Source: Escherichia coli (lineage in GTDB: Bacteria; Pseudomonadota; Gammaproteobacteria; Enterobacterales; Enterobacteriaceae). Taken from it: a stretch of 64,000 nucleotides of DNA. The position numbers and the translations under genes were made by a program. Shown here piece after piece: positions 11,218 through 53,635 of this stretch; position 1 is the first letter of the stretch; each line of letters starts with the position of its first letter. The DNA is taken from the NCBI RefSeq assembly GCF_030013205.1, contig NZ_CP122648.1, one strand, 5' to 3'. The notes under the pieces were generated by a model. The model did not search any database and was not told where the DNA came from. It saw only the letters and a list, made by a program, of their open reading frames with translations.

Positions 11218-13458
11218 ATGGCAAAAAACATATCTTGCGGTGTCCAACTGCGTATTCGTGGCAAAGTGCAGGGCGTCGGTTTTCGTCCGTTTGTCTGGCA
11301 GCTGTCACAGCAATTAAATCTTCACGGCGATGTCTGTAATGACGGCGATGGCGTAGAAGTCCGGCTGCTGGAAGACCCGGAAACGTTTCTTGTGCAGTTG
11401 CATCAGCACTGCCCGCCGCTGGCGCGTATTGATAGCGTCGAGCGTGAGCCGTTTATCTGGTCACAACTGCCCACCGAGTTCACTATCCGTCAGAGCACAG
11501 GCGGAGTCATGAATACGCAAATTGTTCCCGATGCCGCGACTTGTCCTGCCTGTCTTGCTGAAATGAATACCCCGGGCGAGCGGCGTTATCGTTATCCGTT
11601 TATCAACTGTACCCACTGCGGCCCACGTTTCACCATTATTCGCGCGATGCCTTACGACCGCCCGTTTACCGTGATGGCGGCGTTTCCGCTGTGTCCGGCC
11701 TGTGACAAAGAATATCGCGACCCGCTCGATCGTCGCTTCCACGCCCAGCCGGTGGCCTGCCCGGAGTGTGGCCCCCATCTTGAATGGGTAAGTCATGGTG
11801 AACATGCAGAACAAGAGGCGGCATTACAGGCAGCTATCGCACAGTTAAAAATGGGCAACATTGTCGCCATCAAAGGGATTGGCGGATTTCATCTCGCCTG
11901 CGATGCGCGTAACAGTAACGCGGTGGCGACACTGCGGGCGCGCAAACATCGCCCGGCGAAACCGCTGGCGGTTATGTTGCCAGTGGCAGAAGGTTTACCA
12001 GACGCTGCCCGTCAGTTGCTTACCACACCCGCCGCGCCGATTGTGCTGGTGGATAAAAAATATGTACCTGAGCTTTGTGATGATATCGCCCCTGGCCTTA
12101 ACGAAGTCGGGGTAATGTTGCCTGCGAACCCGCTCCAGCATTTGCTGTTACAGGAACTGCAATGCCCGCTGGTGATGACCTCCGGTAACCTGAGCGGTAA
12201 ACCACCGGCTATCAGCAACGAACAGGCGCTGGCGGATTTGCAGGGCATTGCCGACGGATTCTTGATACATAACCGCGACATCGTGCAGCGGATGGATGAT
12301 TCGGTGGTGCGCGAAAGCGGCGAAATGCTGCGCCGTTCGCGGGGGTATGTGCCGGATGCGCTGGCTTTGCCTCCGGGTTTTAAAAATGTTCCGCCTGTGC
12401 TGTGTCTCGGCGCGGATCTGAAAAACACCTTCTGCCTGGTGCGCGGCGAACAAGCGGTGTTGAGTCAGCATCTGGGCGATTTAAGTGACGATGGCATCCA
12501 GATGCAGTGGCGCGAAGCGTTACGCCTGATGCAAAACATCTACGATTTTACCCCGCAATACGTTGTGCATGACGTGCATCCGGGCTATGTCTCCAGCCAG
12601 TGGGCGCGCGAAATGAATCTGCCGACGCAAACGGTGCTGCATCATCATGCTCATGCGGCGGCGTGTCTGGCAGAACATCACTGGCCACTGGATGGCGGTG
12701 ATGTCATTGCGTTGACGCTCGACGGTATCGGTATGGGGGAGAACGGCACTTTATGGGGCGGCGAGTGCCTGCGGGTGAACTATCGCGAATGCCAGCACCT
12801 GGGCGGCTTGCCTGCAGTGGCGCTTGCTGGGGGCGATTTGGCGGCGAAGCAGCCGTGGCGTAACCTGCTGGCGCAGTGCCTGCGCTTTGTGCCGGAGTGG
12901 CAGAATTACCCTGAAACGGCAAGTGTGCAACAGCAAAACTGGAGCGTGCTGGCGCGGGCCATTGAGCGTGGAATTAACGCGCCGCTGGCGTCATCGTGTG
13001 GGCGTTTGTTCGATGCTGTGGCGGCGGCACTGGGCTGTGCGCCAGCCACGTTAAGCTATGAAGGTGAAGCGGCTTGTGCTCTGGAGGCGCTCGCAGCTTC
13101 ATGCGACGGAGTGACGCATCCGGTGACGATACCGCTGGTGGACAATCAACTGGATCTCGCCACTTTCTGGCAGCAGTGGCTGAACTGGCAGGCACCGGTT
13201 AATCAACGCGCGTGGGCGTTTCATGATGCGCTGGCGCAGGGGTTTGCCGCGTTGATGCGTGAGCAGGCCACGATGCGCGGTATCACTACGCTGGTATTTA
13301 GCGGTGGGGTTATTCATAACCGATTGCTGCGTACACGCCTGGCGCATTATCTCGCTGATTTCACATTACTCTTTCCGCAGAGTTTACCGGCGGGTGATGG
13401 CGGCTTGTCTCTGGGGCAGGGGGTTATTGCTGCGGCGCGCATCCTGCATGCTGCATAG
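11218..13458 (+). CDS. hypF: Carbamoyltransferase HypF ([NiFe] hydrogenase maturation)
   Basis: Acylphosphatase domain, two CxxC-x18-CxxC zinc fingers, YrdC and Kae1-like regions; start MAKNISCGV; ORF-track start 11146 is an extension. Confidence 0.9.
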
Positions 13459-13490
13459 TGGCGGATGTGGCGTAACTAAGCGTAAAAAGA

Positions 13491-13523
13491 GCGCGGACAG
13501 TCCCCTCGCCCTTTGGGCGAGGG
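13491..13523. repeat. Small palindromic repeat (GCGGACAGTCCCCTCGCCC..GGGCGAGGG), same family as the repeat at 57096-57115
   Basis: Inverted repeat seen in hypF/norW convergent intergenic; near-identical core in reverse orientation near gabP. Confidence 0.5.
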
Positions 13524-13535
13524 AGAAAACCATGC

Positions 13536-14669
13536 CTACACCGGCAACGTTTTCAACAATCCAAACGCCTCTTTCATCCGATCCTCACTGACCACAAAGG
13601 CGCGAAGCTGGTCGGCATCATCAACACCGCGCGCCACCATTCCCTGGCGTTCGGTATTAATTTGCCAGCGTAAATCCTGACGCTGGGTTTCGCCTGCCAG
13701 ATGCAGCGGTAATTCTGGCGTTTTGATTTTCACCAGCATCGCAGGGAGTTTCAGCGGCGTGTTATTGCCGAGAAGATTTTTTGCCAGCACCATCGCGCTA
13801 AGTTGAATCGGCTGGAGGAACGGCAATACCTGACCGTTAATTTCCGTGCAATCGCCCAGCGCATAAATATCGGCATTACTGGTTTGCAGATAACTATCGA
13901 CGCAAACGCCGCGATTAATCGTCAGCCCGGCGCGTCGTGCCAGGGCGGTTTCCGGGCGCAGTCCGGTGGCGGCAATTACCGCATCCACTTCGATGCTGCG
14001 CTGGCGGTCCAGCGTTGCCAGAATGCTAGAATCCGTTTTTTCCAGCCCCTGCAACTGAGATTTTAACAGCAGATGAACGCCCATCTCCGTCAACCGATGC
14101 TGCAAGCGGCTGCTTACTTCCGGTGGCATTAACGATGCCAGAATACTGGCAGCGTTGTCGATTAGCGTGACCGCTTTGCCTGCACGACAAAAATCCATCG
14201 CCAGTTCGCTACCAATCAAGCCACCGCCAACAATCAACACGCGTCGGGCATCCCGCAGTTGCGTTTCACAGGCGCGATACTCTTGCTGACTATTTAACGT
14301 CAGCATTAACTCACGCCCAGGCACAGGCGGGACAAAGGCGCTGGCACCAGTTGCCAGCACTAGCTTGTCGTATCGCCACTGATTATTCTGGCTTTTCACT
14401 ACATGGGCTTCGGCATCGATATCCGTCACCCAGGTTTGCGGAAACAGGCGCAGATTAAACTGCTCGGCAAATTCACCCGCCGTCTGGCGGGTAAGGTCAT
14501 CGGCTCGTTGCCCCTGACTGATAACATGGCTGAGGTCAGGTTTGTTGTACTCATCCATGCTGTCGGCGGCAATCAGGGTTAATGGAATACTGGCGTCCTG
14601 TTTGCGAATATTTTTCACCAGTTGGCGGGCGGCAAAGCCCGAACCAATGATCACAATGCCGTTGCTCAT
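13536..14669 (-). CDS. norW: NADH:flavorubredoxin reductase NorW
   Basis: 377 aa, FAD/NAD Rossmann GxGxxG motifs; downstream of norV. Confidence 0.9.
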
Positions 14670-30241: not shown

Positions 30242-30376
30242 TATTCTCCGAAATCTTCAGCAATGAAGATATCGAAGAGGTAGCGGAATTAACCGCAGGC
30301 ACCAGGAAGGATAACGTTGCTTTAGCAACGGCCCGAAGGGCGAGCCGCAAGGCGAGTAATCCTCCCGGATGCACCA
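30242..30376 (+). repeat. ~135-nt spacer repeat ending in a degenerate tRNA-Arg 3' fragment (AATCCTCCCGGATGCACCA)
   Basis: Direct repeat of 30517-30649 with scattered substitutions; terminal 19 nt equal the tRNA-Arg T-arm/acceptor 3' end. Confidence 0.7.
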
Positions 30377-30439
30377 TCTCCTAATTGATATGGCTTTAGT
30401 AGCGGTATCAATATCAGCAGTAAAATAAGTTTTCCCGAT

Positions 30440-30516
30440 GCATCCGTAGCTCAGCTGGATAGAGTACTCGGCTACGAACCGAGCGGTCGGAGGTTCGAAT
30501 CCTCCCGGATGCACCA
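30440..30516 (+). tRNA. tRNA-Arg (anticodon ACG), copy 3
   Basis: Identical 77-nt sequence. Confidence 0.9.
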
Positions 30517-30649
30517 TATTCTCCGTAATCTTCAGTAATGAAGGTATCGAAGAGGTAGCGGTATTAACCGCAGGCACTAGGGAGGATAACGTTGCGCCAG
30601 CAACGGCCCGAAGGGCGAACGCCAGTGAGTCATCCTCCCGGATGCACCA
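30517..30649 (+). repeat. Second copy of ~135-nt spacer repeat with degenerate tRNA-Arg 3' fragment (CATCCTCCCGGATGCACCA)
   Basis: See 30242-30376. Confidence 0.7.
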
Positions 30650-31363: not shown

Positions 31364-31788
31364 GTGAAGCGTTATCGCTTTTCTCGTTGTTTGCCAGTAG
31401 TTTTCTCAGCGCTACACTATTACCCGGCAACTCCGAAGTCGTGCTGGTGGCAATGTTGCTTTCCGGGATCAGTCATCCCTGGGTTTTAGTTTTAACAGCA
31501 ACAATGGGTAATAGCCTTGGAGGGTTAACTAACGTTATCCTTGGGCGTTTCTTTCCATTGCGTAAAACATCGCGCTGGCAAGAGAAAGCTACCGGCTGGC
31601 TGAAACGCTATGGTGCAGTCACGCTATTATTAAGCTGGATGCCCGTGGTTGGCGATTTACTGTGTCTGTTAGCGGGATGGATGCGCATCTCCTGGGGGCC
31701 GGTAATCTTTTTTTTGTGCCTTGGTAAAGCGTTACGCTATGTTGCAGTTGCAGCAGCGACCGTTCAGGGCATGATGTGGTGGCACTAA
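31360..31788 (+). CDS. yqaA: DedA/SNARE-associated family inner membrane protein YqaA
   Basis: 142 aa hydrophobic, overlaps yqaB stop. Confidence 0.85.
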   Translation: MSEALSLFSLFASSFLSATLLPGNSEVVLVAMLLSGISHPWVLVLTATMGNSLGGLTNVILGRFFPLRKTSRWQEKATGWLKRYGAVTLLLSWMPVVGDLLCLLAGWMRISWGPVIFFLCLGKALRYVAVAAATVQGMMWWH

Positions 31789-34139: not shown

Positions 34140-34820
34140 TTGTGCACAGAAAACCCCCAGCTAGGCTGGGGGTTCCGGAAAGCTTTCAGCTTTGAGCCAG
34201 TTATTAAAACCCCTTTTGATTTGTTAAAACACCTTGCGGTCTGGCAACTGCAAGTGTCAAACAAGAAATCAAAAGGGGGTCCCAATGGGGAACGAAAAGA
34301 GCTTAGCGCACACCCGATGGAACTGTAAATATCACATAGTTTTTGCGCCAAAATACCGAAGACAAGTGTTCTACAGAGAGAAGCGTAGAGCAATAGGCAG
34401 TATTTTGAGAAAGCTGTGTGAGTGGAAAAGCGTACGGATTCTGGAAGCTGAATGCTGTGCAGATCATATCCATATGCTTGTGGAGATCCCGCCCAAAATG
34501 AGCGTATCCGGCTTTATGGGATATCTGAAAGGGAAAAGCAGTCTGATGCTTTACGAGCAGTTTGGTGATTTGAAATTCAAATACAGGAACAGAGAGTTCT
34601 GGTGCAGAGGGTACTACGTCGATACGGTGGGTAAGAACACGGCGAAGATACAGGATTACATAAAGCACCAGCTTGAAGAGGATAAAATGGGAGAGCAGTT
34701 ATCGATTCCCTATCCGGGCAGCCCGTTTACGGGCCGTAAGTAACGAAGTTGGATGCAAATGTCAGATCGTGTGCGCCTGTTAGGGCGCGGCTGGTAAGAG
34801 AGCCTTATAGGCGCATTTGA
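34140..34820 (+). mobile_element. IS200-type insertion sequence (IS200/IS605 family); boundaries approximate (+/-30 nt)
   Basis: Left-end hairpin CCCCCAGC-TAG-GCTGGGGG (34154-34172), RBS-occluding region AAAAGGGGGTCCCAATG, single Y1 transposase ORF; ~0.7 kb. Confidence 0.8.
34285..34743 (+). CDS. tnpA: IS200 TnpA (HUH Y1 transposase)
   Basis: 152 aa from MGNEKSLAHTRWNCKYHIVF; HxH motif (HIHML) and catalytic Y region; near-identical to remembered Salmonella IS200 TnpA. Confidence 0.9.
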   Translation: MGNEKSLAHTRWNCKYHIVFAPKYRRQVFYREKRRAIGSILRKLCEWKSVRILEAECCADHIHMLVEIPPKMSVSGFMGYLKGKSSLMLYEQFGDLKFKYRNREFWCRGYYVDTVGKNTAKIQDYIKHQLEEDKMGEQLSIPYPGSPFTGRK

Positions 34821-34827
34821 AAAACCT

Positions 34828-34846
34828 CCGGCTATGCCGGAGGATA
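34828..34846 (-). terminator. Probable emrB rho-independent terminator (CCTCCGGCATAGCCGGAGG followed by TTTTT on minus strand)
   Basis: GC-rich hairpin plus U-tract immediately after emrB stop. Confidence 0.55.
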
Positions 34847-34857
34847 TTTATTTGTAC

Positions 34858-48561: not shown

Positions 48562-48730
48562 GATTCGTATTTCCGTTTAAAATGAAGATACGGCGCGATG
48601 ATACGCGTCGGGTTGTCTCTCTGTTGATACAGAGATACTATATGTAGTTGAAAAAAGATTCAACCATACAAGATATGGGAATTTTAGATTGATTACGCCA
48701 CCGATGAATGGCTCAACGGGGTAGGGGATT

Positions 48731-48748
48731 TTGTGTTTTTTTGCCGGG
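48731..48748 (-). terminator. Rho-independent terminator (GCCGGGTATTCACCCGGC + A/T-rich tail on minus strand) downstream of the CMD-family gene
   Basis: Hairpin followed by AAAAAAACACAAAA on minus strand, just past the stop at 48770. Confidence 0.6.
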
Positions 48749-48769
48749 TGAATACCCGGCATCAAGAAG

Positions 48770-49201
48770 TTACATCCGCATGGAAACGGCCAGACGGTTA
48801 AAACAATTCATCAGCCCGATGGCAAACGTTAAGTCGCTGATCTCTGCTGCGCTGAAATGCTCAAGCAAAGGCTGATAAACCTCGTCTTCCGCATGGGTTC
48901 TGGCAATTTCGGTTACCGATTCCGCCCATGCCAGCGCCGCCCGCTCGCGTTCATCAAAATGATGGCTTACGCGCCAACCTGCCAGGGCATCCAGTTTGTG
49001 CTGTGGCACGCCGGATTTGCGCAATGCTTTGCTGTGCATCTCCAGACAAAATGCGCAGCCGTTGATTTGCGAGACGCGCAAATAAACTAACTCCATCAAC
49101 GTGGTATCCAGCGTGCTATTTTCCAGTGCCGTTTTGGCCTGCACTAGTGCGTTATACACTGCCGGGCTAAGTTCGTAGTAAGGCTGACGTAATGTAGTCA
49201 T
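48770..49201 (-). CDS. Carboxymuconolactone decarboxylase (CMD)/AhpD-like family protein
   Basis: 143 aa with NGCAFCLEMH (CxxC...H) signature typical of CMD/AhpD-like peroxidase-type proteins. Confidence 0.7.
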   Translation of the reverse strand: MTTLRQPYYELSPAVYNALVQAKTALENSTLDTTLMELVYLRVSQINGCAFCLEMHSKALRKSGVPQHKLDALAGWRVSHHFDERERAALAWAESVTEIARTHAEDEVYQPLLEHFSAAEISDLTFAIGLMNCFNRLAVSMRM

Positions 49202-49288
49202 ACAGTTTCTCCTCTTATTAACGCCCGCAATGTAGCACTATAATGGACTGCTAAAGAGAGCCATAAATTACCTAAAAAAGCAGACCAT

Positions 49289-50623
49289 ATGCCGCGCTAT
49301 CAGGATATCGCCCGTCAGTTAAAAACGGCTATTGAGCAAGGGGAACTGAAACCCGGCGCAAGGCTGCCTTCAAGTCGTACCTGGTCGCAGGAGCTGGGGG
49401 TGTCTCGATCCACTGTCGAAAATGCGTATGCTGAGCTGGTGGCGCAAGGATGGCTGATCAGGCGGGGACAGGCTGGCACATTTGTCAGTGAGCGGATATA
49501 TCCGCAACAATCTACTGTACAAGTTGTAGCTTTTGCCGGTGAAAGTCAGCAACCGTTGCCATTTCAAATGGGATTACCCGCACTCGATCTCTTTCCGCGA
49601 GAGCTGTGGGCGCGGGTGATGGGGCGTCGCCTTCGTACCCAGACGCGCTTTGATTTGGCGTTAGGCGATGTCTGCGGTGAGGTGGCGTTGCGCGAGGCAA
49701 TAGTTGATTACTTACGCGTTTCACGTGGGATTGATTGTCAGCCAGAGCAGGTCTTTATCACTCACGGTTATGCGGCCTCAATAGCTTTAATTCTGCACGC
49801 GCTGGCGAAACCGGGAAACGGGATGTGGATAGAAGATCCCGGCTTTCCACTGATTCGCCCGATTGTCACTCGCCATGATGTGGAAATTTTGCCTGTGCCG
49901 GTTGATGACAATGGACTGGATATCACAAGCGGAATACAAAATTATCCTGATGCGCGTTTTGCCCTGATAACACCAGCACACCAAAGTCCGCTGGGTGTGG
50001 CGCTCTCTTTAGCGCGCAGGCATCAGATACTGGAATGGGCAGATCGTAGTCAGGCATGGATTATTGAAGATGATTATGACAGTGAGTTTCGCTATCACGG
50101 TAAGCCGTTACCGGCGTTAAAAAGTCTCGACGCACCGCAGCGGGTAATTTATGCCGGAACATTCAGCAAAGCGCTATTTCCTGCATTGCGCTGTGCGTGG
50201 CTGGTGTTGCCAGTGAAGCAAATTGCACAATTCCGCCACCAGGCGTCACTGGCTCCATGTGCGGTACCTGTTCTATGGCAGAACACACTGGCAGACTTTC
50301 TTCGCGAGGGGCATTTCTGGCGGCATCTGAAGAAAATGCGTCAGCATTATGCTCAACGTCGGCAATGGATTGAGCAAGCGTTGACGCAGCAAGGATTTCA
50401 GGTTGTGCCGCAGAAAGGTGGTATCCAGATGGTGATCAGAATGATAGGCGATGATATTGCCCATGCGCGTAAAGCCAATGCTGCAGGCCTTGCGGTGCAG
50501 GCACTTAGCGACTGGCGTATCCGTTCAAGTGGGGAAGGTGGATTACTGCTCTCGTTTACTAATATCGTTAACGAAGGTATGGCGCGACAGGTAGCACAAC
50601 AATTACGTAAAGCCTTAAGCTAA
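49289..50623 (+). CDS. MocR/GabR-type transcriptional regulator (GntR HTH fused to PLP aminotransferase-like domain)
   Basis: 444 aa; N-terminal GntR-like HTH (LPSSRTWSQELGVSRSTVENAYAELVAQGWL), C-terminal fold-type I domain with SK PLP-lysine context (TFSKALFPALR); divergent from CMD gene. Confidence 0.75.
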   Translation: MPRYQDIARQLKTAIEQGELKPGARLPSSRTWSQELGVSRSTVENAYAELVAQGWLIRRGQAGTFVSERIYPQQSTVQVVAFAGESQQPLPFQMGLPALDLFPRELWARVMGRRLRTQTRFDLALGDVCGEVALREAIVDYLRVSRGIDCQPEQVFITHGYAASIALILHALAKPGNGMWIEDPGFPLIRPIVTRHDVEILPVPVDDNGLDITSGIQNYPDARFALITPAHQSPLGVALSLARRHQILEWADRSQAWIIEDDYDSEFRYHGKPLPALKSLDAPQRVIYAGTFSKALFPALRCAWLVLPVKQIAQFRHQASLAPCAVPVLWQNTLADFLREGHFWRHLKKMRQHYAQRRQWIEQALTQQGFQVVPQKGGIQMVIRMIGDDIAHARKANAAGLAVQALSDWRIRSSGEGGLLLSFTNIVNEGMARQVAQQLRKALS

Positions 50624-50626
50624 AAA

Positions 50627-50650
50627 ACCCCGAAGCCAGGCTTCGGGGTC
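50627..50650. terminator. Bidirectional terminator hairpin CCCCGAAGCC-N-GGCTTCGGGG between convergent MocR-like gene and ygaM
   Basis: Perfect GC-rich inverted repeat flanked by A/T runs. Confidence 0.65.
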
Positions 50651-50679
50651 AAAGACGCGTATTTATTATCATTATTGCA

Positions 50680-51021
50680 CTACGATTTGCGCATGCTTAA
50701 CAGTGCGCCGATAAAAATACCAACCGCAGCTGCTGTACCCACGCTACACCAGGGTCTTTCACGAACAAAAGAATCCGCGCAGCCAACGGCATCGCGCGCG
50801 GCTTGCTGGACGCGAGTACGACCATGCATTCGCGCTCTGGTTTCTTTCAGTAGAGCCTGCGCTTTACTACGAGCGGCTTCGGCTTCCCCTTTGGCGTCGC
50901 TGCCCCAGGACTTCAATACAGATTCGAGGCTGTCAGCTAATTGATTGACATCATTCTGGATATCCTGCACGCCATCATCGACGTCGTTGCGGTTCGGTCG
51001 GTTAAACATATGATCCCCCAT
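50680..51021 (-). CDS. ygaM: DUF883 (ElaB/YqjD-like) ribosome-associated membrane-anchored protein YgaM
   Basis: C-terminal TM anchor AAAVGIFIGALL; real start may be the internal MFNRPNRND (51009). Confidence 0.85.
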   Translation of the reverse strand: MGDHMFNRPNRNDVDDGVQDIQNDVNQLADSLESVLKSWGSDAKGEAEAARSKAQALLKETRARMHGRTRVQQAARDAVGCADSFVRERPWCSVGTAAAVGIFIGALLSMRKS

Positions 51022-51160
51022 TAGAATTCGATGTAATTTTCAGTGTAGACCATAATTTTCTTAACTGAGGTTCATCGCGGCTTTATGGACTTTTCTGAAA
51101 GCGTTGTGAATGCGCAATCAGGTAAGGTAGGCCCGCGGTTGATAATAACGAGGATCAAAT

Positions 51161-51505
51161 ATGTATTTACGACCAGACGAGGTGGCGCGCGTACTTGAAA
51201 AAGTCGGTTTTACTGTCGATGTGGTAACCCAGAAAGCGTATGGTTACCGCCGTGGGGAAAATTATGTCTATGTTAATCGTGAAGCACGAATGGGACGTAC
51301 CGCCCTGGTAATTCATCCAACATTAAAAGAACGTAGTTCGACACTGGCTGAACCCGCTTCCGATATTAAAACTTGCGATCATTACCAGCAATTTCCGCTC
51401 TATTTAGCGGGTGAACGTCATGAGCATTACGGTATCCCCCATGGCTTTAGTTCGCGTGTTGCGCTTGAACGTTATTTGAATGGTTTATTTGGCGAAGCCA
51501 GTTAA
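51161..51505 (+). CDS. ygaC: Uncharacterized protein YgaC
   Basis: 114 aa, conserved position. Confidence 0.8.
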
Positions 51506-51541
51506 AGACGCGACTGGCGATGCCAGTCGCGAAAAGAAGGC

Positions 51542-51991
51542 TCAGGCTTTTACCTGCTGGTAACGGCTGACTTTAAACAGTCGGCGGCAATAATCGAGGA
51601 AGTAGCCATAAACCGCCCCCATCAACATCGAAACAACGATGTTTGAACTGACCGCCGCCATAATCTGATGCCAGTCTGCGCCCACCACTAACAAGATCGC
51701 CACATACACCGGTGACTGGAACGTCACATAAGCCATGATATCCGCCAGATTTTTTATCCAGCCCGACGGGCTAACTTTGCGTGCTGCGCGCATAAACAGA
51801 TCGCGGTACATACCGTATGGCCATGCAATTAAGATGTTCACCGGAATCGCTACCAATCTGGAATAAAAAGACTGTTCGAAGCTCATTCCGGAGAGGAAAA
51901 CTTCAATACACATGTTCACGACAGAACAGTAAACAACCATCGCGAACGTATCTGCAACTGCATGACGCAAGCGTGACTGCGGTGAGAACAT
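51542..51991 (-). CDS. alaE: L-alanine exporter AlaE
   Basis: 149 aa from [18 protein letters not shown]; ORF-track start 52102 is an extension. Confidence 0.85.
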
Positions 51992-52659
51992 GCTAATGCT
52001 CCTTAATAAAAGCGTAATGGGATGTGAATGGAGATGAAAGCAGTGGATCTCATTGCCATCTGCATTTTCGCATAGCGTATATCGCTGGCTATGACTAATC
52101 AATTAGTGAAAAATTTTTATTTAAACTGTTTTTGTAGATAAAATATTCCGTAACGGCGCGTTTTTTGTACATTGTGGATTTTTACATGCCGATATGGTTT
52201 ATTTTTAATTAAATCAATTAGATATGATTCTGCCTTTAATTACACTAATGAAAGTTTGGGGGTGAGGTAACGCTATAAGCGTAGAGAATTCGGTGTATGT
52301 CGTGACCGGGTCATTTTCAGCATTTTTTATGCCAGAAAATGTACATTGACAGCAGAAAGCACCAGTGAGGGGGGGGTTCCATTTATTCGGTTAAATTGCA
52401 TTTTTATTCATTTTTGTTTTGTCAGGCTTGCGGAATTAGCGAGCAGAGAGCGCCGCTCTGCTCACAAATAACCTAAATTACTCATCAAAATGGCTAATAT
52501 ATAATCTTGAAATTATTCTGAGAGTTTCAGAAAATAACAGCTGAAATAATCTCGCGCAGGACTGTAAATAGATTAAATTTTGTGGAAATATAATAAGTGA
52601 TCGCTTACACTACGCGACGAAATACTTTTTTGTTTTGGCGTTAAAAGGTTTTCTTTATT

Positions 52660-53064
52660 ATGTCCGTAATGTTACAAAGTTTAAATAACATTCGCACCCT
52701 CCGTGCGATGGCTCGCGAATTCTCCATTGACGTTCTTGAAGAAATGCTCGAAAAATTCAGGGTTGTCACTAAAGAAAGACGTGAAGAAGAAGAACAGCAG
52801 CAGCGTGAACTGGCTGAGCGTCAGGAAAAAATTAGCACCTGGCTGGAGCTGATGAAAGCTGACGGAATTAACCCGGAAGAGTTATTGGGTAATAGCTCTG
52901 CTGCTGCACCACGCGCTGGTAAAAAACGCCAGCCGCGTCCGGCGAAATATAAATTCACCGATGTTAACGGTGAAACTAAAACCTGGACCGGTCAGGGTCG
53001 TACACCGAAGCCAATCGCTCAGGCGCTGGCAGAAGGTAAATCTCTCGACGATTTCCTGATCTAA
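52660..53064 (+). CDS. stpA: H-NS paralog nucleoid protein StpA
   Basis: 134 aa; C-terminal DNA-binding TWTGQGRTP. Confidence 0.93.
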
Positions 53065-53110
53065 TTACTGAGGCCGGATGCCGCCGCTATGGCGCGTCCG
53101 GCGTCGCTTC

Positions 53111-53635
53111 TCAAGCTCGTTGGTTCCACGGCATCTTACCTAACAACCTTGCCATCCCACAAAAACCGCTAATTCCTGCAAACAGTAACCCGGCACCAAC
53201 AAAGCCGCTTAATAAGAAGAAACCGCTATTTACGGTATAACCTAGTATAACTCCGATTAATATTAAACCACCCGCAGCGATCTGCACCTGGCGCATTAAC
53301 GGCAAGGGTTGAGATTTATTTACCGCTACTGGTAATCCTGCTTTTTTCCAGCCATCAATCCCATCTTCGAGTAAAAAGATTTCTGCGGGGGCGGCAATCG
53401 CTGCTAATTTATCGGCGTTATTACTGGTGCGTTTACCTGCCTGGCAGTGGAATATAATTTGCTCGTGACGTAATTTAGCCGGAAGACCTGACTGTTCCAG
53501 CACGGATAATGGAGCCAGATCTGCTTCAGGAATATGCTCACGAAGATATTCATCAGCGTCACGAATATCGATTAACTTTGCGCCGCGTGCGATTAATTCT
53601 TGTGCATCATGCGGCGAAATGGTTGTCAAAGCCAT
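53111..53635 (-). CDS. ygaP: Membrane-anchored rhodanese (thiosulfate sulfurtransferase) YgaP
   Basis: 174 aa, rhodanese active-site CQAGKR and C-terminal TM helices. Confidence 0.85.

Follow-up and report, generated by a model that had tools for sequence, protein, structure and literature searches.

The alaE-stpA intergenic spacer of Escherichia coli as a probable native bidirectional control region with conserved ends and a fast-evolving center

Promoter regions of core genes that are AT-rich, curved, and silenced by H-NS are well described, with those of proV, hns, and bgl as examples, and the repression of these genes is relieved in hns mutants. The proU locus is known for the high-affinity sites at which H-NS nucleates. 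Homopolymeric tracts also underlie phase-variable promoters, as at opc and porA of Neisseria (poly-G/C) and hif of Haemophilus. The spacer analyzed here separates alaE and stpA in a stretch of 64,000 nucleotides of Escherichia coli DNA (the window), which we take to contain proV as well. It resembles the proV, hns, and bgl regions in being AT-rich, with phased A/T tracts and predicted curvature. It differs from them in having an activator, Lrp, on the same platform; according to the K-12 literature, Lrp bridges it to a site inside the downstream gene ygaP.

The closest described system is the stpA-alaE region of E. coli K-12, which occupies the same locus between the same flanking genes. The K-12 spacer is 669 bp long, compared with 668 bp in the window, and in the two promoter-proximal modules the sequences agree fully or almost fully. 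The spacer in the window differs from the assayed K-12 sequence by 5% overall and by about 12% in the central ∼330 bp, where a poly-G tract stands in place of the K-12 TGGATGT. Shimada 2014 (PMC3946193) lists the K-12 spacer among those bound by the RNA polymerase sigma-70 holoenzyme and marks a genomic-SELEX site for H-NS in it. Three later reports (PMC2814080, PMC4668568, PMC9765446), which cite Sonden & Uhlin 1996, Free & Dorman 1997, and Wolf 2006 as primary sources, state that stpA is repressed by H-NS, that H-NS and StpA regulate themselves and each other, and that the stpA promoter is Lrp-dependent in minimal medium. Derepression of stpA in an hns mutant is described for K-12 and for the uropathogenic strain UPEC 536 (PMC2814080, PMC4668568). 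The main text of Kahramanoglou 2011 makes no mention of stpA, and the alaE promoter is not treated in PMC13392391.

The alaE-stpA region also served as a model for Ziegler & Freddolino 2023, who found a double Lrp ChIP peak in K-12 and Lrp-dependent expression of both alaE and stpA (PMC10127797). In that study, alaE underwent slight repression in minimal medium but strong activation when leucine, isoleucine, and valine were present. The second Lrp peak lies at a distance of more than 1 kb, within ygaP, and its removal lowers Lrp activation of stpA more than 5-fold; by atomic force microscopy, Lrp bridges the alaE-stpA fragment, and the bridging is abolished by leucine (PMC10127797).

Control of the alaE-stpA spacer by H-NS, StpA, and Lrp is, then, already known. 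The first-pass annotation of this DNA, which was made from the sequence alone, had proposed a silenced promoter region bound by H-NS/StpA; given the K-12 SELEX site, the H-NS repression, and the Lrp literature, this interpretation is correct and already published. Binding and silencing are supported by the predicted curvature described below, the SELEX site, and the published repression, whereas the notion of a purely silenced region does not hold, because Lrp activates. A lack of predicted curvature or of H-NS occupancy had been named as the refutation of the first-pass annotation, and this test does not refute it. What is added here to the earlier view is that Lrp shares the platform with the silencers. 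The K-12 record supports Lrp, an activator, as the best-documented occupant of the spacer, so the region is probably both activated and silenced. As stpA-alaE is textbook nucleoid-protein cross-regulation and a recent model for Lrp-mediated DNA bridging, the finding itself matters little.

The window is E. coli chromosomal DNA, and its positions 50491 to 54159 are identical in sequence to porcine ETEC4069 (NZ_CP122679). The RefSeq annotation of that genome and of K-12 DH1 bears out the divergent alaE and stpA flanks named in the first-pass annotation (Table 1). The left edge of the spacer had been set at 52103 because a TTG-extended frame that ends at 52102 continues from alaE; with the RefSeq start of alaE at 51991, the true spacer begins at 51992 and is 111 bp longer. 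The part from 52103 to 52659 had been described as ORF-free and does contain no ORF of ≥60 amino acids, with four of 25 to 41 amino acids, three of them TTG-started. Across 50 kb of annotated ETEC genome, the spacer is the longest unannotated gap (the runner-up is 452 bp). It was found in 5,419 of 5,426 complete E. coli genomes, as a single copy in each and never on a plasmid.

Table 1. Features of the alaE-stpA region (positions are those of the window)
Feature	Coordinates	Strand	Basis
alaE (ygaW) CDS, L-alanine exporter	51542..51991	-	RefSeq on identical ETEC4069 sequence and on K-12 DH1; ORF list
stpA CDS, H-NS paralogue	52660..53064	+	ORF list; RefSeq (ETEC4069, K-12 DH1)
Complete alaE-stpA intergenic spacer, 668 bp, 35% GC	51992..52659	.	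Annotated flanks, composition
Putative alaE ribosome-binding site AAGGAGC	51998..52004	-	GCTCCTT near-invariant in the alignment of 27 sequences across genera
Candidate alaE core promoter TTGATT-17-TACGCT (-35, 52097-52102; -10, 52074-52079)	52074..52102	-	Conservation only
Strongest conserved upstream block, AATTTTTATTT ... TTTTGTnGAtAAAAT	52112..52149	.	Cross-genus alignment
Promoter-like TTTACA-17-TTTAAT	52181-52209	+	Shimada 2014 prediction, PMC3946193 Table 1
Promoter-like GTGATA-17-TCTAAT of K-12 (GTGTAA in the window allele)	52217-52245	-	Shimada 2014 prediction, PMC3946193 Table 1
Central spacer, AT-rich, curvature predicted, sequence-unconstrained (∼330 bp)	52150..52480	.	Diversity, divergence from K-12
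Lineage-specific poly-G tract, G8 in the window assembly	52369..52376	.	Sequence
Inverted repeat GAGCAGAG-AGCGCCG-CTCTGCTC, 8-bp stem	52441..52463	+	Folding compared with shuffles
stpA-proximal conserved module with putative -10 TATAAT (52589-52594), ATTACnCT (∼52604-52612), and Shine-Dalgarno AAAAGGTTTT (52643-52652)	52481..52659	+	

The composition of the spacer sets it apart from the rest of the window. The GC content of positions 52103 to 52659 is 34.1%, against 52.1% for the whole window, and is the lowest among all 557-bp windows in the 64 kb. The A/T tracts reported in the first-pass annotation are likewise real, with 20 runs of A4+/T4+ in this part compared to 8.8 ± 2.6 expected from composition-matched shuffles. 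Curvature, which had been suggested as a check, was predicted with the Bolshoy-Trifonov wedge model, whose values here are best read relative to internal controls. On this scale, the spacer reaches 8.5 to 8.7 degrees per turn against a window mean of 5.9, within the top 0.25% of 668-bp windows. Six of its curvature peaks exceed the 95th percentile of the window, and two are within the eight highest of the 64 kb; peaks lie at 52305-52347 and 52466-52493. Shuffling the spacer with its dinucleotide content preserved gives 7.4 ± 0.7 degrees per turn, and 3% of the shuffles attain the value of the spacer (P of about 0.03), a modest excess; AA/TT power near 10 bp is 2.7-fold the mean power in the spacer. 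The model suggests that the predicted curvature comes mostly from composition and that phasing adds modestly to it. The sole other stretch of the window with a GC content of ≤36%, at ∼63270-63970, lies upstream of glaH (csiD) and beside an alpha-amylase pseudogene, with a curvature peak at 63507.

To place the locus in a wider context, a degenerate pattern for the N terminus of StpA was used to collect 34 loci in species-representative genomes, of which 26 had both genes on the fetched DNA. In all 26 species, which represent at least 7 genera, alaE and stpA are divergent neighbors separated by a spacer of 489 to 696 bp with a GC content of 33 to 40%. The arrangement occurs in Escherichia, Salmonella, Citrobacter, Enterobacter, Lelliottia, Leclercia, and Huaxiibacter and in unnamed Enterobacteriaceae. 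Within a 27-sequence cross-genus alignment, conserved blocks are confined to the two promoter-proximal ends of the spacer, and the center (52150-52480) cannot be aligned outside Escherichia. This comparative picture, with a conserved alaE-stpA arrangement, conserved ends, and what appears to be a fast-evolving center, is new here.

On the alaE side, the blocks ATAGNGTAT and CAAYTAG are conserved across genera. Read on the minus strand, they yield TTGATT-17-TACGCT, the -10 element of which keeps TAnnCT in all genera. This pair, which a consensus promoter scan missed, is a candidate weak promoter of alaE. Farther upstream, the block AATTTTTATTT ... TTTTGTnGAtAAAAT is near-invariant in each of the seven genera named above and sits roughly at -45 to -85 relative to the candidate start of alaE, which is predicted near 52067. 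Such a position would suit an activator such as Lrp, and we infer from the K-12 work (PMC10127797) that the block may be an Lrp site.

The module on the stpA side (52481-52659) is 100% identical to K-12 apart from one T in a T-run, with a nucleotide diversity (pi) of 0.012. Its blocks that are conserved across genera are TGGAAATAT, TGGAAATATAAT (which includes the TATAAT), ATTACnCT, and AAAAGGTTTT just 5′ of the ATG. The stpA start probably lies near 52601; the positions of the promoter elements of both genes, read from the sequence, are putative. Between the two modules, the promoter-like sites predicted by Shimada 2014 stand back-to-back (Table 1).

Motif scans added little to this picture. 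A consensus promoter and terminator scan gave counts not above those of shuffles, and the sole terminator-like site in the scan was within stpA, on the wrong strand. Unlike proU, the spacer (51992-52659) has no match to the H-NS high-affinity nucleation motif TCGWTWAATT at ≤1 mismatch; at two mismatches, there are ten matches in 52135-52578, as the AT-rich composition would give. The Lrp SELEX consensus YAGHAWATTWTDCTR has two three-mismatch matches (at 52073 and 52506), a density not above that in the rest of the window.

The center of the spacer evolves differently from its ends. Among 12 E. coli alleles, pairwise pi is about 0.01 in both genes and in both promoter-proximal modules, compared to 0.07 to 0.10 over 52121-52480, a central value that is inflated because the alleles were picked by the spread of their central identity. 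In the same 12 alleles, and with the same inflation, pi is 0.09 in the center versus 0.04 at the 4-fold sites of alaE and stpA, that is, about twice as high. The comparison with K-12, which is independent of the choice of alleles, agrees with high central divergence: the 200 bp from 52221 are 12.5% diverged, the second highest value in the 48 kb aligned (mean, 2.45%). The most diverged 200-bp window relative to K-12 (14%) is at ∼13441-13640, near the hypF/norW junction. Haplotype blocks in the center look mosaic among the E. coli alleles. Judged from these comparisons, the center changes at a rate no lower than that of synonymous sites. On the simplest reading, it works, if at all, through its length and AT-richness and not through its sequence; the retention of length class and AT-richness across genera while the sequence drifts fits a platform that is read by composition and shape.

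Taken together, it is highly probable that alaE and stpA share this DNA as their native bidirectional control region, a long, AT-rich, curved spacer activated by Lrp and repressed by H-NS/StpA, with one conserved promoter module per end, an unconstrained middle of ∼330 bp, and a G8 run without a demonstrable role. The alaE-side module would cover about 51992-52150, and the stpA-side module would cover about 52481-52659. Oligomers of Lrp would occupy the spacer as well as the second site, within ygaP, and would bridge the DNA; Lrp would activate stpA in minimal medium, and alaE in the presence of leucine or alanine. H-NS and StpA would nucleate on the AT-rich curved DNA, spread, and repress stpA, which would result in both cross-repression and autorepression. 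What would count in the central DNA is composition and length; nucleoid-protein filaments or loops would use it as a platform irrespective of its exact sequence. For the allele in the window, this mechanism is carried over from the K-12 literature by orthology. Because the locus is the same and the modules are near-identical, the double Lrp peak and bridging, the H-NS SELEX site, the H-NS repression, and the StpA autorepression of K-12 very probably carry over.

The G8 run is the one unusual detail of the spacer. It had been placed within GAGGGGGGGG at 52367-52376 in the first-pass annotation and is found there. It is the sole run of G or C of ≥7 in the 64 kb and, as called, is long enough for frequent slippage (7-8 or more). 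Other alleles read TGGATGT (K-12), TAGATGT, TGGGTGT, or GATATAC at this site, and the closest alleles read GGGGTGT. A pure G run is present in about 7 of the 5,426 complete E. coli genomes, all of them porcine ETEC (from Belgium, the Netherlands, and Korea), and its length is called as G7 in K_EC180, G8 in ETEC4069 and 4079, G9 in 4070 and 4071, and G10 in 1748 and 4067. Six of these seven assemblies, the Belgian and Dutch ones, are nanopore-only and medaka-polished (PMC10151945). Nanopore-only assemblies resolve long G runs poorly, so the exact length of the tract, including the G8 in the window, is uncertain. A perfect TTGACA at 52346-52351 is followed by 17 nucleotides and then by GGGGGG in place of a -10 hexamer. 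On neither strand does the tract fall between paired -35 and -10 elements, and it is outside any credible ORF.

Several features of the tract are those expected of a slippage-prone contingency switch, in which changes between G7 and G10 would shift the spacing or helical phase of nucleoid-protein sites relative to the stpA and alaE promoters and thereby cause heritable, reversible variation of StpA or AlaE expression in the ETEC lineage. As at opc and porA of Neisseria and hif of Haemophilus, a G tract of ≥7 is found in an intergenic regulatory region, with lengths called differently in close relatives. The seven tract-bearing assemblies differ over about 940 bp by tract length alone, and both near-clonal pairs are concordant. 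Moreover, 5 of 6 comparisons disagree on the length of the tract, whereas for the other homopolymers of ≥6 in the same 50 kb the figure is 5 of 204, and no other G/C run of its length exists in the window. The pattern from G7 to G10 thus resembles slipped-strand variation but is inseparable from homopolymer miscalls in nanopore-only data. Sister assemblies also show single-base length differences in T8, T7, A6, and A6 runs at 31708, 29715, 30134, and 37636, respectively, and a T8>T7 call frameshifts yqaA in ETEC1748; such run-length differences are probably long-read homopolymer errors, and they calibrate the trust to be placed in the G run. Unlike the Neisseria and Haemophilus tracts, this one is neither between -35 and -10 elements nor in a reading frame, and it occurs in a handful of genomes with lengths taken from nanopore-only assemblies. 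It is missing from about 99.9% of E. coli genomes, none of the metagenome contigs scanned contained the poly-G allele, and the tract is about 225 bp from the probable stpA start, in the unconstrained part of the spacer. A contingency switch is therefore highly unlikely. Its more elaborate form, a newborn switch on a nucleoid-protein gene, is extremely improbable: two T>G changes (GGGGTGT to poly-G) would have made a slippage-prone tract amid the Lrp/H-NS platform, and a heritable length of 7 to 10 would tune the phase or continuity of filaments or loops and thus the level of StpA or AlaE. Given the miscall-prone data and the lack of promoter or ORF context, the G run is treated as a recent, lineage-specific mutation, that is, a change from GGGGTGT to poly-G in unconstrained DNA of one porcine ETEC lineage. 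It lies outside the conserved regulatory architecture and is without a demonstrable regulatory role. The tract matters only if the length variation is real and expression is affected.

Two further accounts concern the spacer as a whole. An unannotated gene might be hidden in it, either a small RNA that ends at or contains the hairpin at 52441-52463 or a small protein or leader peptide, and the unusual length of 668 bp and the promoter-like sites in mid-spacer are compatible with this possibility. The hairpin folds at -13.8 kcal/mol (shuffles, -5.5 ± 2.5 kcal/mol), and each of the 12 E. coli alleles has it; among them, a C>T change retains G·U pairing on the plus strand. However, the hairpin is absent from the cross-genus alignment outside E. 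coli, including E. albertii and E. whittamii, where the whole center is unconserved as well, and it is not followed by a terminator-like T-run. A scan against Rfam 15 at a permissive E-value gave a single hit, to rli43, with a score of 16.9 bits where the gathering score is 100 (E = 0.43). The hairpin was rejected as a terminator or small-RNA element on the grounds of the missing T-run and the lack of conservation outside E. coli. The short ORFs fare no better, being TTG-started, located in the hypervariable part, and struck by indels; the sole ATG ORF (52095-52172, minus strand) is without a start codon in other genera. Since their starts and frames vary among alleles and genera, they were rejected as leader peptides or small proteins. 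With no gene annotated in the spacer in any of 13 RefSeq records either, a hidden gene is very improbable. The other account holds that the AT-rich spacer is what remains of xenogeneic DNA gained by horizontal transfer and is silenced by H-NS for that reason. A GC content 18 points below that of the surroundings would fit such an origin, as would the high within-species divergence of the center with its mosaic-looking haplotypes. Yet the spacer occupies the same position in the 5,419 E. coli genomes, once in each and never plasmid-borne, and neither sequence nor annotation reveals mobile-element features. The divergent pair, moreover, has an equally AT-rich spacer across at least 7 genera. Because alaE-stpA synteny is conserved across genera, foreign origin was rejected and is the least probable of all the accounts weighed here. 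A native control region shared by alaE and stpA remains the preferred reading.

Other differences from K-12 and among the sister assemblies were observed elsewhere in the window. The segment at ∼48677-50621, between nrdH and ygaM, is absent from K-12 and carries a carboxymuconolactone decarboxylase family gene and, divergent from it, a gene of the PLP-dependent aminotransferase family (MocR-like, 444 amino acids). At ∼34143-34848, an IS200C-family transposase that is not in K-12 DH1 lies between luxS and emrB, and five clustered single-nucleotide polymorphisms (34209-34626) set the window apart from four sister ETEC assemblies. A 273-bp indel at 30354-30626 falls in the array of tandem tRNA-Arg repeats downstream of csrA: one repeat is missing in ETEC4079, and the array of K-12 DH1 is one tRNA-Arg longer than that of ETEC4070.
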